Positions 28,764 to 31,283 of a DNA stretch of 42,729 nt are shown here, piece by piece. The stretch lies in sequence record PQ589898.1; one strand, 5' to 3'. Positions within the stretch are counted from its first letter, which is position 1. Each line of letters begins with the position of its first letter. The position numbers and the translations under genes are program-made. The DNA comes from Escherichia phage Alux-21. The notes under the pieces are model-generated. The model ran no database searches. It saw nothing but the letters and a program-made list of their open reading frames with translations, and was not told the DNA's origin.

Positions 28764-30101
28764 TTGGTCCATCTAACGATTCACACAAATTATGGGTTGG
28801 CGAGACTTGCGCAGGCAGAATCTGCCGGAACGCAAATCAACCTGACTCACATGGCAGTTGGCGATGGCAACGGCAACCCGGTGACACCTGACCCGGAACA
28901 AACGCAGTTGGTGCGCGAGCGTTTCCGCGCCACCATTAACCGTGTTTTCCAGTCACCTACTGACCCGTTAAGGTTCACCGCAGAGTTAGTCATTCCCGCC
29001 AGTGTTGGCGGGTTTACCCTGCGTGAAGTTGGCGTGTTTGATGCTGATGGTTCGCTGTTTGCAGTTGGCAACCTGCCAAATACTTACAAGCCTGTTGATA
29101 CCGAAGGTTCTTACTCTGACACGGTGGTGCGACTTGATTTCCTGGTCAGTAACGCCAGCACAATTACGCTACAGGTTGACCCAAACGTTGTGGTAGTGAC
29201 GCAACAATGGATTTCAAACAACGTGACCGCTGGAACAATCATACCTGGCGGAACCACCGGACAGGTACTGACGAAGAAATCCAACGCTGACGGCGATGTG
29301 CACTGGTCAGACCCGACCTCAGCGCTTGTGGTGGTTGATACGGTTGCAGAGAAACAAACGCTGGCAGCAGGGCAAACTATCGTTGACCTGACAGAAACCA
29401 TTACCTACGGCCTGGCGGTTTACATTGAAGGTGTTCGCCTTCCGATGGGTTCCGGTGCGGATGAATGGCATCCTGACCCCAACATCACAACCAGAGTCAT
29501 TCTTGGGAAATCATATCCAGATGGTTCTATATTCCAGGGCGTGAACAACGAACCAGCAGGCAGCGCACCTGCACCGCTGGAACGCTCAAAAAACCTGTCT
29601 GACGTTGCCAGCGTGGAGACATCGCGCACCAATCTTGACGTGTTCAGCAAGGCAGAAACGCGGCAGATGGCACCGGCTGGGCTTGTTGCTACGTTTGCAA
29701 GAAGCACAGCGCCAACAGGCTGGCTGAAAGCGAATGGCGCCGCCGTAAGCCGTACCGCATACGCTGACCTGTACGCGGCCATTGGCACGAGATTTGGCGC
29801 TGGTGATGGCATCAACACGTTCAACCTTCCAGATCTGCGCGGTGAGTTCATTCGAGGATGGGATGATGGCAGGGGCGTTGATTCAGGCCGTGCCCTTGGC
29901 AGCGCACAGGGACAGTTGATTGAGTCGCACGATCACGGAATGGACCCTTACAAGCCAATAAACGCCAATGTTCTGAAACCGGTAGCAAGTGGTGCTGAAC
30001 TGTCATCGGTTGGGGTTGGTAACACGGTAAGAACAAGGCCAACTGGCGGTTCAGAAACCCGACCGCGCAACGTTGCATTGCTGTATTGCATTAAATTCTA
30101 A
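28764..30101 (+). CDS. tail fibre protein (P2 gpH-like N-terminus, tail-collar-type C-terminal domain)
   Basis: TTG start (no ATG/GTG in frame after upstream stop); N-terminus ...INLTHMAVGDGNGNPVTPDP...AELVIPASVGGFTLREVGVFDADGSLFAVGNLPNTYKP parallels P2 gpH; C-terminus ...FGAGDGINTFNLPDLRGEFIRGWDDGRG is collar-domain-like. Confidence 0.8.
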   Translation: MVHLTIHTNYGLARLAQAESAGTQINLTHMAVGDGNGNPVTPDPEQTQLVRERFRATINRVFQSPTDPLRFTAELVIPASVGGFTLREVGVFDADGSLFAVGNLPNTYKPVDTEGSYSDTVVRLDFLVSNASTITLQVDPNVVVVTQQWISNNVTAGTIIPGGTTGQVLTKKSNADGDVHWSDPTSALVVVDTVAEKQTLAAGQTIVDLTETITYGLAVYIEGVRLPMGSGADEWHPDPNITTRVILGKSYPDGSIFQGVNNEPAGSAPAPLERSKNLSDVASVETSRTNLDVFSKAETRQMAPAGLVATFARSTAPTGWLKANGAAVSRTAYADLYAAIGTRFGAGDGINTFNLPDLRGEFIRGWDDGRGVDSGRALGSAQGQLIESHDHGMDPYKPINANVLKPVASGAELSSVGVGNTVRTRPTGGSETRPRNVALLYCIKF

Positions 30102-30110
30102 GGCGGCATT

Positions 30111-30392
30111 ATGACCACAAAGATTGTTTATCAGTATGACATCGCCGGAATGTTCACCGGCGAAACGGAAGCAGATGAATCACCACTGGAACCGGGTGTG
30201 TTCCTGATTCCGGCGAGATGCGTTGAAGTGGCACCGCCTGCGTATTATGGCGACCAGTGGCCGCGATGGAACGGTGCAAAGTGGGAACTGATTACCGTAT
30301 CACCAGCAAACGACAATCAACCTGCCAGCCCGGTTGATAAACTTCGGGATTTTCTGATGGCAAATCCTGACGTTGCTGAATTGATTAAGTAA
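30111..30392 (+). CDS. tail fibre assembly chaperone (gpG/Tfa-like)
   Basis: 93 aa; YQYDIAGMFTGETEADESPLEPGVFLIPARCVEVAPP...WPRWNGAKWELI typical of Tfa N-domain. Confidence 0.7.
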   Translation: MTTKIVYQYDIAGMFTGETEADESPLEPGVFLIPARCVEVAPPAYYGDQWPRWNGAKWELITVSPANDNQPASPVDKLRDFLMANPDVAELIK

Positions 30393-30449
30393 TAGCGTAA
30401 ACATTTTTATTACACTATATTAACACGGCAATCTTGCACATTTTATAGG

Positions 30450-31154
30450 GTGTTGCCGTGTATGAGTCAGTTACTTCATTTATGGGATGGCTTGACCGGC
30501 GTTGTGCTGCCTTTTGCGGGCGCAACGCCACCTAAAAACTGGTTGCTGTGTGATGGCCAAGCGATTAGCCGAACTTTGCACGCAAAACTGTTTTCAGTTA
30601 TTGGCACAATGTTTGGAGCTGGTGATGGAACATCAACGTTCAATCTGCCAGACCTGCGCGGGCGTGTGGCTGCTGGTAAAGACAATATGGGCGGAACACC
30701 GGCTAACCGCCTGACCACGGCAGGTTCTGGCGTTGACGGTCCTACGCTTGGTGCCGCTGGAGGAAATCAGGCGCACACCCTGACCACTGCTCAGATGCCA
30801 GCGCACGGACACACTGCCACTGATTCTGGACACGGCCACAGCGTCTATGACCCAACGCACGCGCACACCGTTTATGATCCAGGGCACTCGCATCAGATTG
30901 ATGGCTGGAATCTTAGTGCGTTTGACCCTTCTGGTGGCGGTTATTCAGTTGGCGCAGATGCGCCAAACAGCGGGGCAAGCGGCGCTGGACAGGTGGCAAA
31001 ATCAACAACAACCGGCATTGGCATTTATGCAGCAGCCACCGGCATCAGCATTTACAACGGCACAGCAAACATTAGCATTGGAAGCCAGGGTGGCGGTGGC
31101 GCTCACAACAACACACAGCCCACCATCGTTTTAAATCACATTATCCGCACCTGA
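30450..31154 (+). CDS. tail-collar-domain protein (second receptor-binding-type protein)
   Basis: 234 aa (GTG 30450 or ATG 30462); ...FGAGDGTSTFNLPDLRGRVAAGKDNMGG... paralogous to C-terminus of fibre gene; His-rich HGHTATDSGHGHSVYDPTHAHTVYDPGHSH segment; own AT-rich upstream region and terminator. Confidence 0.6.
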   Translation: MLPCMSQLLHLWDGLTGVVLPFAGATPPKNWLLCDGQAISRTLHAKLFSVIGTMFGAGDGTSTFNLPDLRGRVAAGKDNMGGTPANRLTTAGSGVDGPTLGAAGGNQAHTLTTAQMPAHGHTATDSGHGHSVYDPTHAHTVYDPGHSHQIDGWNLSAFDPSGGGYSVGADAPNSGASGAGQVAKSTTTGIGIYAAATGISIYNGTANISIGSQGGGGAHNNTQPTIVLNHIIRT

Positions 31155-31169
31155 TATTTTGTCGCCTTT

Positions 31170-31191
31170 GCCCGCTGCGGCGGGCTTTTTT
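31170..31191 (+). terminator. rho-independent terminator after fibre module
   Basis: GCCCGC-TGCG-GCGGGC hairpin followed by TTTTTT. Confidence 0.65.
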
Positions 31192-31194
31192 ACG

Positions 31195-31212
31195 GACAAA
31201 CCCCAAGAAGAA
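31195..31212 (+). repeat. 18-bp direct repeat GACAAACCCCAAGAAGAA, copy 4
   Basis: Exact 18-mer immediately after terminator 31170-31191, 72 bp upstream of sheath ATG. Confidence 0.7.
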
Positions 31213-31283
31213 GCCACGCACGGTTCCTGCGACCATCACACTGCGAATTTTCACTGTGTGCACAGTTAATAGGAAACCGAATA

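Follow-up and report, generated by a model that had tools for sequence, protein, structure and literature searches.

Between the tail-fibre genes and the tail sheath gene of Escherichia phage Alux-21 (PQ589898.1; the 42,729 nucleotides analysed are called the window here) lies a free-standing gene with a tail-collar domain, at the place that Z/fun occupies in phage P2. A first-pass annotation read this gene as the second copy of a duplicated receptor-binding module and offered two functions for it, a second fibre tip or a moron that mimics a receptor-binding domain. The locus thus raises the question of whether the gene is a copy of its neighbour and whether it serves the virion or the lysogen.

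Gene organization of the locus

The gene order was confirmed, with a stand-alone, putatively receptor-binding collar-domain module sitting between a fibre-assembly-like gene and the sheath gene. The features are as follows.

28764–30101 (+): main tail fibre, 445 aa (Pfam; phrog_327 tail protein, E = 2.6e-120), with an N-terminal PF12571 domain at aa 4–148 (Pfam) and a Collar domain, PF07484, at aa 306–363, nt 29679–29852 (E = 1.6e-22, 79.6 bits)
30111–30392 (+): small gene, 93 aa (phrog_1766, E = 2.6e-15; phrog_105, tail fiber assembly, E = 2e-4)
30393–30461 (+): spacer, 69 nt, 65% AT (composition and alignment of relatives)
30462–31154 (+): stand-alone gene, 230 aa from ATG 30462, stop codon included in 31154
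30462–30497 (+): N-terminal peptide MSQLLHLWDGLT, aa 1–12 (AF2 helix at residues 2–9, pLDDT about 65)
30498–30668 (+): collar domain of the stand-alone protein, aa 13–69 of the 230-aa reading (PF07484; AF2 pLDDT 75–88)
30804–30893 (+): needle segment with four HxH motifs, aa 115–144, presumed metal-binding (homologue alignments, profile match)
30894–31010 (+): hypervariable distal tip, aa 145–183, presumed receptor-contact region (homologue alignments)
31011–31154 (+): return segment and conserved C-terminus (TGIGIYAAATGISI ... GGGGAHNNTQPTIVLNHIIRT) with the stop codon (invariant columns; AF2 strand 222–229)
31170–31191 (+): intrinsic terminator, 6 G-C pairs, 4-nt loop, T6
31284–32708 (+): tail sheath gene, the first gene past the terminator (Pfam Phage_sheath_1 and Phage_sheath_1C; phrog_23, E = 1.3e-129)

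The stand-alone gene had been read from a GTG at 30450, giving 234 aa. We corrected this start, which is most likely the ATG at 30462, because same-length homologues cover the 230-aa reading end to end and orthologue alignments begin at that methionine; residue numbers below follow the 230-aa protein unless stated otherwise. Pfam Collar was found in both the 445-aa fibre and the stand-alone protein, as had been claimed, and both score above the PF07484 gathering score of 24 bits. In the stand-alone reading frame the match spans aa 17–73 of the 234-aa reading (E = 5.1e-24, 84.4 bits) and covers profile positions 1–56 of 57. The collar begins at residue 13, just 12 residues into the protein, and no recognizable shaft or baseplate-anchor domain was seen. 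The histidine-rich segment described earlier contains four HxH motifs spaced 9 residues apart (H115/117, H124/126, H133/135 and H142/144), all four invariant among 11 close homologues; the number of repeats differs across the wider family. Following its own collar, the main fibre ends in 82 aa of C-terminal domain, in which a single HDH motif occurs. The similarity of the 93-aa protein to tail-fibre assembly proteins is confined to their N-terminal part (profile positions 24–79 of 239).

Relationship of the two collar domains

The motif FGAGDG..LPDLRG reads FGAGDGINTFNLPDLRG at 29793–29843 in the fibre and FGAGDGTSTFNLPDLRG at 30612–30662 in the stand-alone gene, and its nucleotide identity, first put at about 80 percent, is 40/51 (78%). 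With the two collars lying about 800 nt apart, such an identity over 51 nt might suggest that the C-terminal collar module of the fibre was recently duplicated in the Alux-21 genome. As a null for the DNA identity, the peptides were held fixed and codons were resampled from the phage's own usage. The expected motif identity was 74.8 ± 4.4%, with 28% of samples reaching the observed 78%, and over the whole 171-nt collar the observed identity was 60% versus 59% expected; the longest exact word common to both collars is 11 nt. The DNA identity is therefore fully explained, because peptide conservation and codon usage predict that level.

Protein comparisons point the same way. The main fibre and the stand-alone protein share 39% identity over 126 aa (pairwise BLASTP, E = 4e-20). 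Across phages, collar amino acid identity is 67–91% among proteins encoded at the stand-alone position (the 'slot', below) and 63–88% among main fibres, but 56–68% between slot and fibre collars, and the 58% found within Alux-21 is no closer than these cross-phage values. The two classes have signatures of their own (VLPFAG..WLLCxGQ versus FARxTAPTGWLKANGAA). Moreover, HeidiAbel and PPpW-3 possess the slot collar with no fibre collar, and fibre end and slot protein assort independently among relatives. On these alignments the two Alux-21 collars are old paralogues, not a recent copy, and the description of the module as duplicated was abandoned. Recent duplication or gene conversion was rejected on the collar identities and the codon-resampling null, and we consider a recent duplication extremely improbable.

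Similarity to structurally characterized fibres

Almost the entire stand-alone protein aligns with the 'arm' (Pro156–Val379) of gp34, the long tail fibre of the Anabaena cyanophage A-1(L), a myophage; collar motif, HxH repeats and C-terminus all fall within the alignment. In PDB 8KEC (A-1(L) gp34), query residues 30–230 of the 234-aa reading matched chain residues 180–375 with E = 8e-14 (profile E = 8.6e-26), and the segment encoded at 31011–31154 aligned to the C-terminus of gp34. This arm has been described as T4 gp37-like and as binding host cells (PMC10966104). The two proteins differ at the other end, where a shoulder domain of 155 residues fastens gp34 to the baseplate wedge (PMC10966104), whereas the Alux-21 protein has no counterpart of this shoulder (aa 1–155) and only its 12 residues before the collar.

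An AF2 monomer run from a 46-sequence alignment yielded a good collar and a disordered needle (mean pLDDT 61; needle below 50). Foldseek with this monomer returned 8KEC first (E = 8e-7), then 2XGF and T4 gp12 entries, at TM-scores of 0.24–0.29, low values that reflect the poor quality of the model beyond the collar. The receptor-binding tip of gp37, the T4 long tail fibre (2XGF; Foldseek E = 2.3e-4, probability 0.96), resembles the layout predicted for the Alux-21 protein in its succession of collar, HxH needle and distal head; a sequence-level match to 2XGF was not found. It forms the end of a 1026-residue fibre, whereas the Alux-21 protein is free-standing. The HxH motifs of T4 gp37 coordinate iron ions on the trimer axis. 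The T4 short tail fibre gp12 (1OCY, 1PDI, 5IV5) likewise has a collar followed by an HxH site, and in the profile match to 1OCY (E = 6.3e-7) MPAHNH of the profile aligns with MSYHKH, placing the first HxH at the position of the gp12 HKH, which is a zinc site. However, gp12 has another head domain, as well as a long N-terminal shaft and a baseplate-binding region that are absent from the Alux-21 protein. The phiTE short tail fibre (9CUY) matches over the collar only. Among PHROGs there were 22 family matches, of which the top 9 and 18 overall are tail families; the module appears there as an internal or C-terminal part of longer fibres, for example at positions 545–747 of 1024 in phrog_8763.

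A conserved position with exchangeable occupants

Alux-21 is a Jilinvirus-like (Iiscvirinae) myophage, not P2, and carries an apparently full-length integrase. Orthologues of the stand-alone gene occupy the same position (fibre, small Tfa-like gene, slot gene, terminator, sheath) in HeidiAbel, KA2-1, PT1, Persinger and PPpW-3 and in metagenomic contigs L087, L088, L089 and L126, and MQ-4, Mica, Mano and phiRSP, like PT1, have full-length homologues. The slot gene keeps its place in phages that infect Escherichia, Salmonella, Klebsiella, Serratia, Pseudomonas and Achromobacter, with full-length homologues also in Burkholderia and Ralstonia phages, and some of the relatives that carry it are isolates described as virulent. 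A GTDB genome scan gave only relatives of ≤68% identity over partial matches, in non-enteric bacteria.

Gp17 of the Escherichia phage HeidiAbel (Bas97; Jilinvirus) and gp18, a 'tail protein', of the Klebsiella phage KA2-1 are identical to the Alux-21 protein at 59–62% and 72–87% of positions, respectively, over the full length (the latter range depending on the alignment method), and both share its position, N-terminal peptide, collar, HxH needle and C-terminus. In the literature HeidiAbel Gp17 is treated as a fibre in its own right, its tip being a truncated version of a T4 gp37-like one, and is proposed as a short tail fibre (PMC11990801). HeidiAbel differs from Alux-21 in having another tip cassette (aa 145–183), and it lacks the collar-type main fibre and the 741-aa tailspike-like protein that Alux-21 has. 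This distal tip is swapped as a cassette among close homologues: P0004 joins a HeidiAbel-like N-terminal half to a window-like tip and P0006 is the reverse. Contig L126 is 95–100% identical to the window over 30264–31300, with 59–82% identity in the adjacent fibre gene, a contrast in keeping with exchange of the region as a cassette.

Other domains are found in the same place in ep3, where ep3_0044 is PF21882 (Gp53-like_C), and in Arya, where gp18 is PF21722 (Gly_rich_2) and the PHROG family that it matches is labelled 'tail fiber assembly'. An N-terminal peptide of the MSxVLDL or MSxVLEL type, similar to that of Alux-21, heads slot proteins with unrelated C-terminal domains. It reads MSRVLDLIRAL in Arya and, as a weaker match, MSEVLRGI in ep3, with the start context aatgtATGAG common to both, and the product of IMG/VR contig L037 starts with MSRVLELISSL and ends in ...WVAIGH. 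Judged by these comparisons, the slot is an exchangeable site, the last gene of the baseplate/fibre block, that holds other fibre-tip domains in sister phages.

The claim that the gene has its own terminator held in part. A clean terminator does lie downstream (stem GCCCGC-TGCG-GCGGGC at 31170–31185, then T6), but it is conserved in all relatives whatever the slot gene, and because it is kept in ep3 and Arya behind a different gene it seems to belong to the baseplate/fibre operon as a whole rather than to this gene. Upstream, the AT-rich region noted earlier is present as the 69-nt spacer. A spacer between the upstream gene and the slot gene is found in Alux-21, HeidiAbel and L089, and in HeidiAbel and L089 a terminator-like hairpin stands ahead of it, so separate transcription of the slot gene is conceivable. 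Slot-gene orthologues in Persinger, PPpW-3, L087 and L088 overlap the upstream tail gene by ATGA; the counterpart of the 93-aa gene in ep3, Arya, L087 and L088 (96–101 aa) overlaps the slot gene in this way. The Alux-21 spacer contains a 16-mer, ATTACACTATATTAAC (30409–30424), that is common to KA2-1 and recurs with one change in HeidiAbel and L089, and this is the point where homology to HeidiAbel begins. Even with up to 3 mismatches allowed, the window has a single occurrence of the 16-mer, which is therefore not a repeated phage promoter motif. An inverted repeat of 9 bp (ACACGGCAA, 30424–30432, and TTGCCGTGT, 30453–30461) ends at the start codon and folds over a Shine-Dalgarno-like site, AGGGTG. 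A sigma-70 consensus scan of the spacer gave no match; by eye, TTAACA-18 nt-TATAGG is a weak promoter candidate.

A predicted receptor-binding fibre tip

Homology to a solved fibre arm, the conserved position and the mosaicism of the tip favour the fibre-tip alternative of the first-pass annotation. Most likely, 30462–31154 encodes a receptor-binding protein of the virion, either a short fibre that is trimeric or a fibre tip, built on the collar-needle-tip plan of T4 gp37 and A-1(L) gp34. Homology, synteny, mosaicism and composition are the observations behind this reading, and the predictions drawn from them are that the protein forms trimers, binds metal, attaches to the virion and recognizes a receptor. 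Three chains would form the collar and extend away from it as a slender needle, stabilized by metal ions at the four HxH layers; the variable distal tip would touch a surface receptor, and the chains would come back to the collar via the conserved C-terminus. The conserved 12-residue N-terminal peptide is a candidate docking peptide, which may attach the protein to a conserved part of the tail, be it the baseplate or the main fibre's N-terminal domain, and not to the variable end of that fibre. In Klebsiella KP32-like and G7C-like phages, second receptor-binding proteins dock via a short conserved N-terminal peptide. Those proteins and the gp38 adhesins of T2 and S16 resemble the Alux-21 slot in combining a short conserved N-terminus with exchangeable receptor-binding domains, but they have no sequence relationship to the Alux-21 protein and their tail architecture differs. 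A literature search on tail-collar or microcystin-dependent proteins and docking peptides found nothing relevant.

Alternative explanations

Rather than forming an independent short fibre on the baseplate, the protein might cap the 445-aa fibre as an adhesin at its distal end, much as gp38 sits on gp37 in T2 and S16. The gene directly follows the fibre and a small assembly-like gene, to which its relatives are often coupled by the ATGA overlap, its product stands alone with no anchor domain, and the Arya slot protein is glycine-rich, a feature reminiscent of gp38-type adhesins. Yet the fibre ends of relatives differ, that of HeidiAbel comprising Phage_fiber_2 and Gp53-like_C with a Caudo_TAP chaperone and that of PPpW-3 lacking a collar, whereas their slot N-termini, MSQILEFWKGLSG and MSRVLDLWKGLTG, are close to MSQLLHLWDGLTG of Alux-21. 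Since the slot N-terminus is constant while fibre ends differ, docking on a variable fibre end is unlikely, and this model was ranked low; a complete collar-needle-tip unit is, moreover, itself a fibre end and not a cap. We judge it unlikely. A non-virion assembly factor for the fibre or the tailspike would suit a gene that adjoins assembly-like genes and would fit the PHROG label of the Arya slot protein, but the Alux-21 protein is similar along its whole length to the receptor-binding arm of a fibre of solved structure, and a hypervariable, exchangeable tip is not expected of a chaperone, which makes such a role very unlikely.

The remaining reading is that of a moron or lysogenic-conversion gene, expressed in the lysogen, whose product would block the receptor or exclude phages by mimicking a receptor-binding domain. 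Its place between fibre genes and sheath gene is that of P2 Z/fun, an AT-rich spacer with a conserved 16-mer lies upstream and a terminator downstream, an integrase is present, and the spacers of HeidiAbel and L089 are preceded by a hairpin resembling a terminator. Equivalence to Z/fun holds for position and goes no further, Alux-21 belonging to another group of phages, and the terminator is part of the backbone. The GC content of the gene (54.8%) equals that of the window (54.3%); PADLOC gave no family match at E ≤ 0.01 and NCBIfam no match for the protein, and no signal peptide or lipobox was seen when the sequence was read by eye. Megablast of 28700–31300 against 5,426 complete E. coli genomes returned no near-identical copy. 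Conservation of the position among phages whose hosts span at least six bacterial genera, isolates described as virulent among them, and overlap with the upstream tail gene in several relatives also argue against a moron, and a mosaic tip is the pattern of a host-range determinant. The suggestion of a moron mimicking a receptor-binding domain was accordingly set aside as highly improbable.

Implications for small myophages

The stand-alone protein probably belongs to a known kind of fibre, its HeidiAbel orthologue Gp17 having already been described as a short fibre. With this slot protein, the main fibre and the tailspike-like protein, Alux-21 probably carries three receptor-binding proteins. 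In annotations, 'tail-fibre protein' or 'receptor-binding protein' is the fitting name for its product, and the label of conversion gene is to be avoided. As a tentative generalization, to which we give somewhat less than an even chance, the block may end in a universal 'plug-in' slot, in which some 10 residues (MS-x-VL-D/E-L-W/I) would suffice for trimeric receptor-binding domains as unrelated as collar-needle, Gp53-like_C and glycine-rich ones to dock onto a conserved site of a P2-type baseplate or of the fibre's N-terminal domain, the 16-mer at 30409 being the 5' recombination edge of the cassette or its own promoter. If so, small myophages would have a second or third receptor-binding protein that is swappable as a cassette. 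Taken together, the short N-terminal peptide that is conserved, the domains that are exchanged behind it and the tip of 39 residues that is swapped point to a compact module that could serve for retargeting small myophages.

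Gene neighbourhood of the slot gene

The tail region has a P2-type gene order, in which the stand-alone collar-domain gene (slot gene) lies before the sheath gene:

23495-24148, plus strand, gpV-like
24202-24540, plus strand, gpW-like
24541-25443, plus strand, gpJ-like
25427-26029, plus strand, gpI-like
26030-28255, plus strand, 741-aa tailspike-like protein
28252-28686, minus strand, HNH/EndoVII-like ORF
28764-30101, plus strand, 445-aa fibre (main fibre)
30111-30392, plus strand, 93-aa protein similar to the N-terminal part of tail-fibre assembly proteins
30450/30462-31154, plus strand, slot ORF
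31170-31185 plus T6, plus strand, terminator
31284-32708, plus strand, sheath

Outside the fibre cassette, HeidiAbel_Bas97, vB_EcoM-ep3 and ECOO78 (Jilinvirus, Iiscvirinae) are 90-93% identical to the window, so that, judged from sequence, the phage is a small myophage of Jilinvirus-like type whose tail module is P2-like, and not P2 kin in the narrow sense. The lifestyle of the genus is reported as unclear (PMC11990801); the window encodes an apparently full-length tyrosine integrase (41163-42374; Arm-DNA-bind_3 plus Phage_integrase) adjoined by a minus-strand tRNA-Arg(tct) gene (40782-40858).

The tailspike-like protein (no PHROG match, weak Tail_spike_N match, GC 44-46%) is possibly a depolymerase. 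In comparison loci L126, L087 and L088 its position is filled by unrelated proteins (630, 701 and 644 aa, respectively), and this position is a second exchangeable receptor-binding slot. Two free-standing HNH/EndoVII-like ORFs inside the tail module (28252-28686, minus; 33694-34311, plus; GC 40-46%) look like homing-endonuclease insertions. The latter, missing in HeidiAbel and present as a diverged copy in ep3, begins directly past the stop codon of the gpE-like chaperone's putative -1 frameshift extension (slippery TTTTTTA at ~33546-33552) and has an 11-nt overlap with the start of the tape-measure gene. The sheath protein, 474 to 558 aa among relatives, carries at aa ~146-225 an inserted two-repeat segment (GYTTAPTV...GG.G.GATA) resembling domains of very large virion proteins (PHROGs match).

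Collar domain and length of the slot protein

Pfam Collar (PF07484) was detected far over threshold in both the main fibre and the slot protein, which share 39% identity over 126 aligned aa (E 4e-20). The first-pass annotation had described a collar motif common to both genes at about 80% nucleotide identity, as well as an AT-rich upstream region and a His-rich segment in the stand-alone gene, and all three observations hold: the copies of FGAGDG(I/T)(N/S)TFNLPDLRG at 29793-29843 (fibre) and 30612-30662 (slot gene) match at 40/51 nucleotides (78%), the spacer is 65% AT, and the His-rich stretch consists of four HxH with a 9-residue period. The ORF also stands, but not its assigned length of 234 aa; because same-length homologues cover the reading from ATG 30462 end to end, and orthologue alignments start at its Met, the protein is most likely 230 aa.

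Slot content varies among related phages

Main fibre ends and slot proteins in the window and related phages (phage; main fibre end; slot protein)
Window, KA2-1, Persinger; Collar; collar-needle
HeidiAbel; Phage_fiber_2 + Gp53-like_C, with Caudo_TAP chaperone; collar-needle
PPpW-3; without collar; collar-needle
ep3; Collar; 120-aa Gp53-like_C (PF21882)
Arya; Collar; 257-aa glycine-rich (PF21722)

Elsewhere, all three slot domain types are terminal or nearly terminal in long fibre proteins (matched PHROG profile positions), and the gene before the sheath is equally varied in the 69 surveyed IMG/VR loci that share the sheath gene. The terminator, a clean hairpin of six G-C pairs followed by T6, had been assigned to the slot gene as its own; since it and the sequence up to the sheath gene are conserved regardless of the slot gene type, it looks like the operon terminator of the backbone.

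Collar-type slot proteins start with MS(Q/K/R)(L/I/V)L(H/D/E/Q)(L/F)W.G(L/M)(T/S)G, the Arya glycine-rich protein with MSRVLDLIRAL and a Gp53-like_C-type protein from IMG/VR (L037) with MSRVLELISSL; ep3 is a weaker match (MSEVLRGI). Slot starts have a common DNA context, aatgtATGAG, and in ep3, Arya, Persinger, PPpW-3, L087 and L088 they overlap the preceding small gene's stop codon in an ATGA, an arrangement typical of co-translated tail genes. The slot proteins of HeidiAbel and PPpW-3 retain the N-terminus of the window protein though their fibres end differently, which suggests docking on a conserved part of the tail (the baseplate or the PF12571 N-terminal domain of the fibre) rather than on the fibre end.

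In Pseudomonas phage PPpW-3 (L005, 5004-5597), the deposited ORF17 start (locus 5085) is apparently 27 codons too far downstream; with 5004 as the start, the protein again begins with the conserved MSRVLDLWKG and the gene again overlaps ORF16 in an ATGA. The more distantly related IMG/VR contigs L058-L085 (sheath 57-60% identical) have a pre-sheath gene from another family, in which the MPLQRIPGAMVSDSTIT start is conserved and the ends vary, the same constant-N-terminus, variable-C-terminus pattern as in slot proteins.

Origin and expression of the slot gene

The slot collar had been proposed as a duplicate of the fibre collar. When the two peptides are back-translated with codons sampled according to this phage's usage, the expected DNA identity is 74.8 ± 4.4% over the motif (observed 78%) and 59 ± 2% over the whole collar (observed 60%), and the longest word common to both collars is 11 nt; their DNA thus carries no signal beyond domain conservation. 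Mutual identity is 67-91% for the slot-protein collars of five phages and 63-88% for the collars of five fibres, compared with 56-68% between the classes (58% within the window genome), and each class has a separate signature. Fibre end and slot protein also vary independently across relatives. For these three reasons the two collars are not regarded as a duplication.

Nor does the gene resemble a moron, the other role suggested for it. Its GC content (54.8%) is that of the window (54.3%), unlike the tailspike and HNH-like ORFs (40-46%); the protein matched none of the PADLOC families searched, and no near-identical gene copy was found in 5,426 complete E. coli genomes. In the BASEL study, the relative HeidiAbel is reported to form clear plaques without visible lysogen growth, despite its integrase (PMC11990801), a gene that the window has too.

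The spacer segment 30409-30461 might act as a promoter or attenuator, or mark a recombination edge. HeidiAbel homology starts exactly at 30409, the first base of a 16-mer, ATTACACTATATTAAC, shared by the window, KA2-1, HeidiAbel and locus L089, and a terminator-like hairpin lies directly behind the assembly gene in HeidiAbel and L089. A 9-bp inverted repeat (30424-30432, 30453-30461), identical in KA2-1, spans the Shine-Dalgarno-like AGGGTG and extends up to the ATG; no sigma-70 consensus was present in the spacer. The 16-mer, upstream hairpins and inverted repeat make separate or attenuated expression possible, which by itself is no argument for a non-structural role.

The slot protein as a probable receptor-binding protein

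Among solved structures, the best relative is A-1(L) gp34, a cyanophage long tail fibre (8KEC; E 8e-14 by single sequence, 8.6e-26 by profile), whose alignment starts at the collar motif and reaches the final residues. The earlier reading as a second fibre tip is supported. The matching part of gp34 is a 180-Å ‘arm’ that is T4 gp37-like and binds host cells, and residues 1-155 form a ‘shoulder’ anchored at the baseplate wedge (PMC10966104); in comparison, the slot protein amounts to an arm that lacks the shoulder. T4 gp12 was also reached by profile (E 6e-7), with the first HxH aligned to its HKH. An AF2 monomer model, confident only in the collar (pLDDT 75-88), has an N-terminal helix (residues 2-9) and a C-terminal strand (222-229), and ranked 8KEC first in Foldseek, followed by the T4 gp37 tip (2XGF) and gp12 entries. 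Across a 46-sequence alignment, the collar, MPAHxH and the AHNNTQPTIVLNHII end are invariant, the number of 9-residue DPxHxH units varies and the middle is hypervariable. This pattern fits a chain running out to the tip and back to the collar, as that of T4 gp37 does.

Close homologues have two unrelated versions of aa 145-183, shuffled against the rest of the protein: homologue P0004 joins a HeidiAbel-like N-terminal half to the window's tip, and P0006 is the reverse. Window positions 30264-31300 are 95-100% identical to metagenomic phage contig L126, whose fibre gene reaches just 59-82% identity and whose tailspike is unrelated. Such mosaicism and exchange are signs of a putative host-range determinant, and we consider it quite probable that the slot protein is a receptor-binding protein of the virion.

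The HeidiAbel slot protein has already been interpreted as a fibre in its own right whose gp37-like tip is truncated; the proposal is that it serves as a short tail fibre and acts later than the lateral fibre (PMC11990801). The window gene is of the same kind, with a different set of partners: a tailspike-like protein and a main fibre of the collar type. To this known picture are added the slot with its N-terminal-peptide pattern and the mosaicism of the tip cassette.
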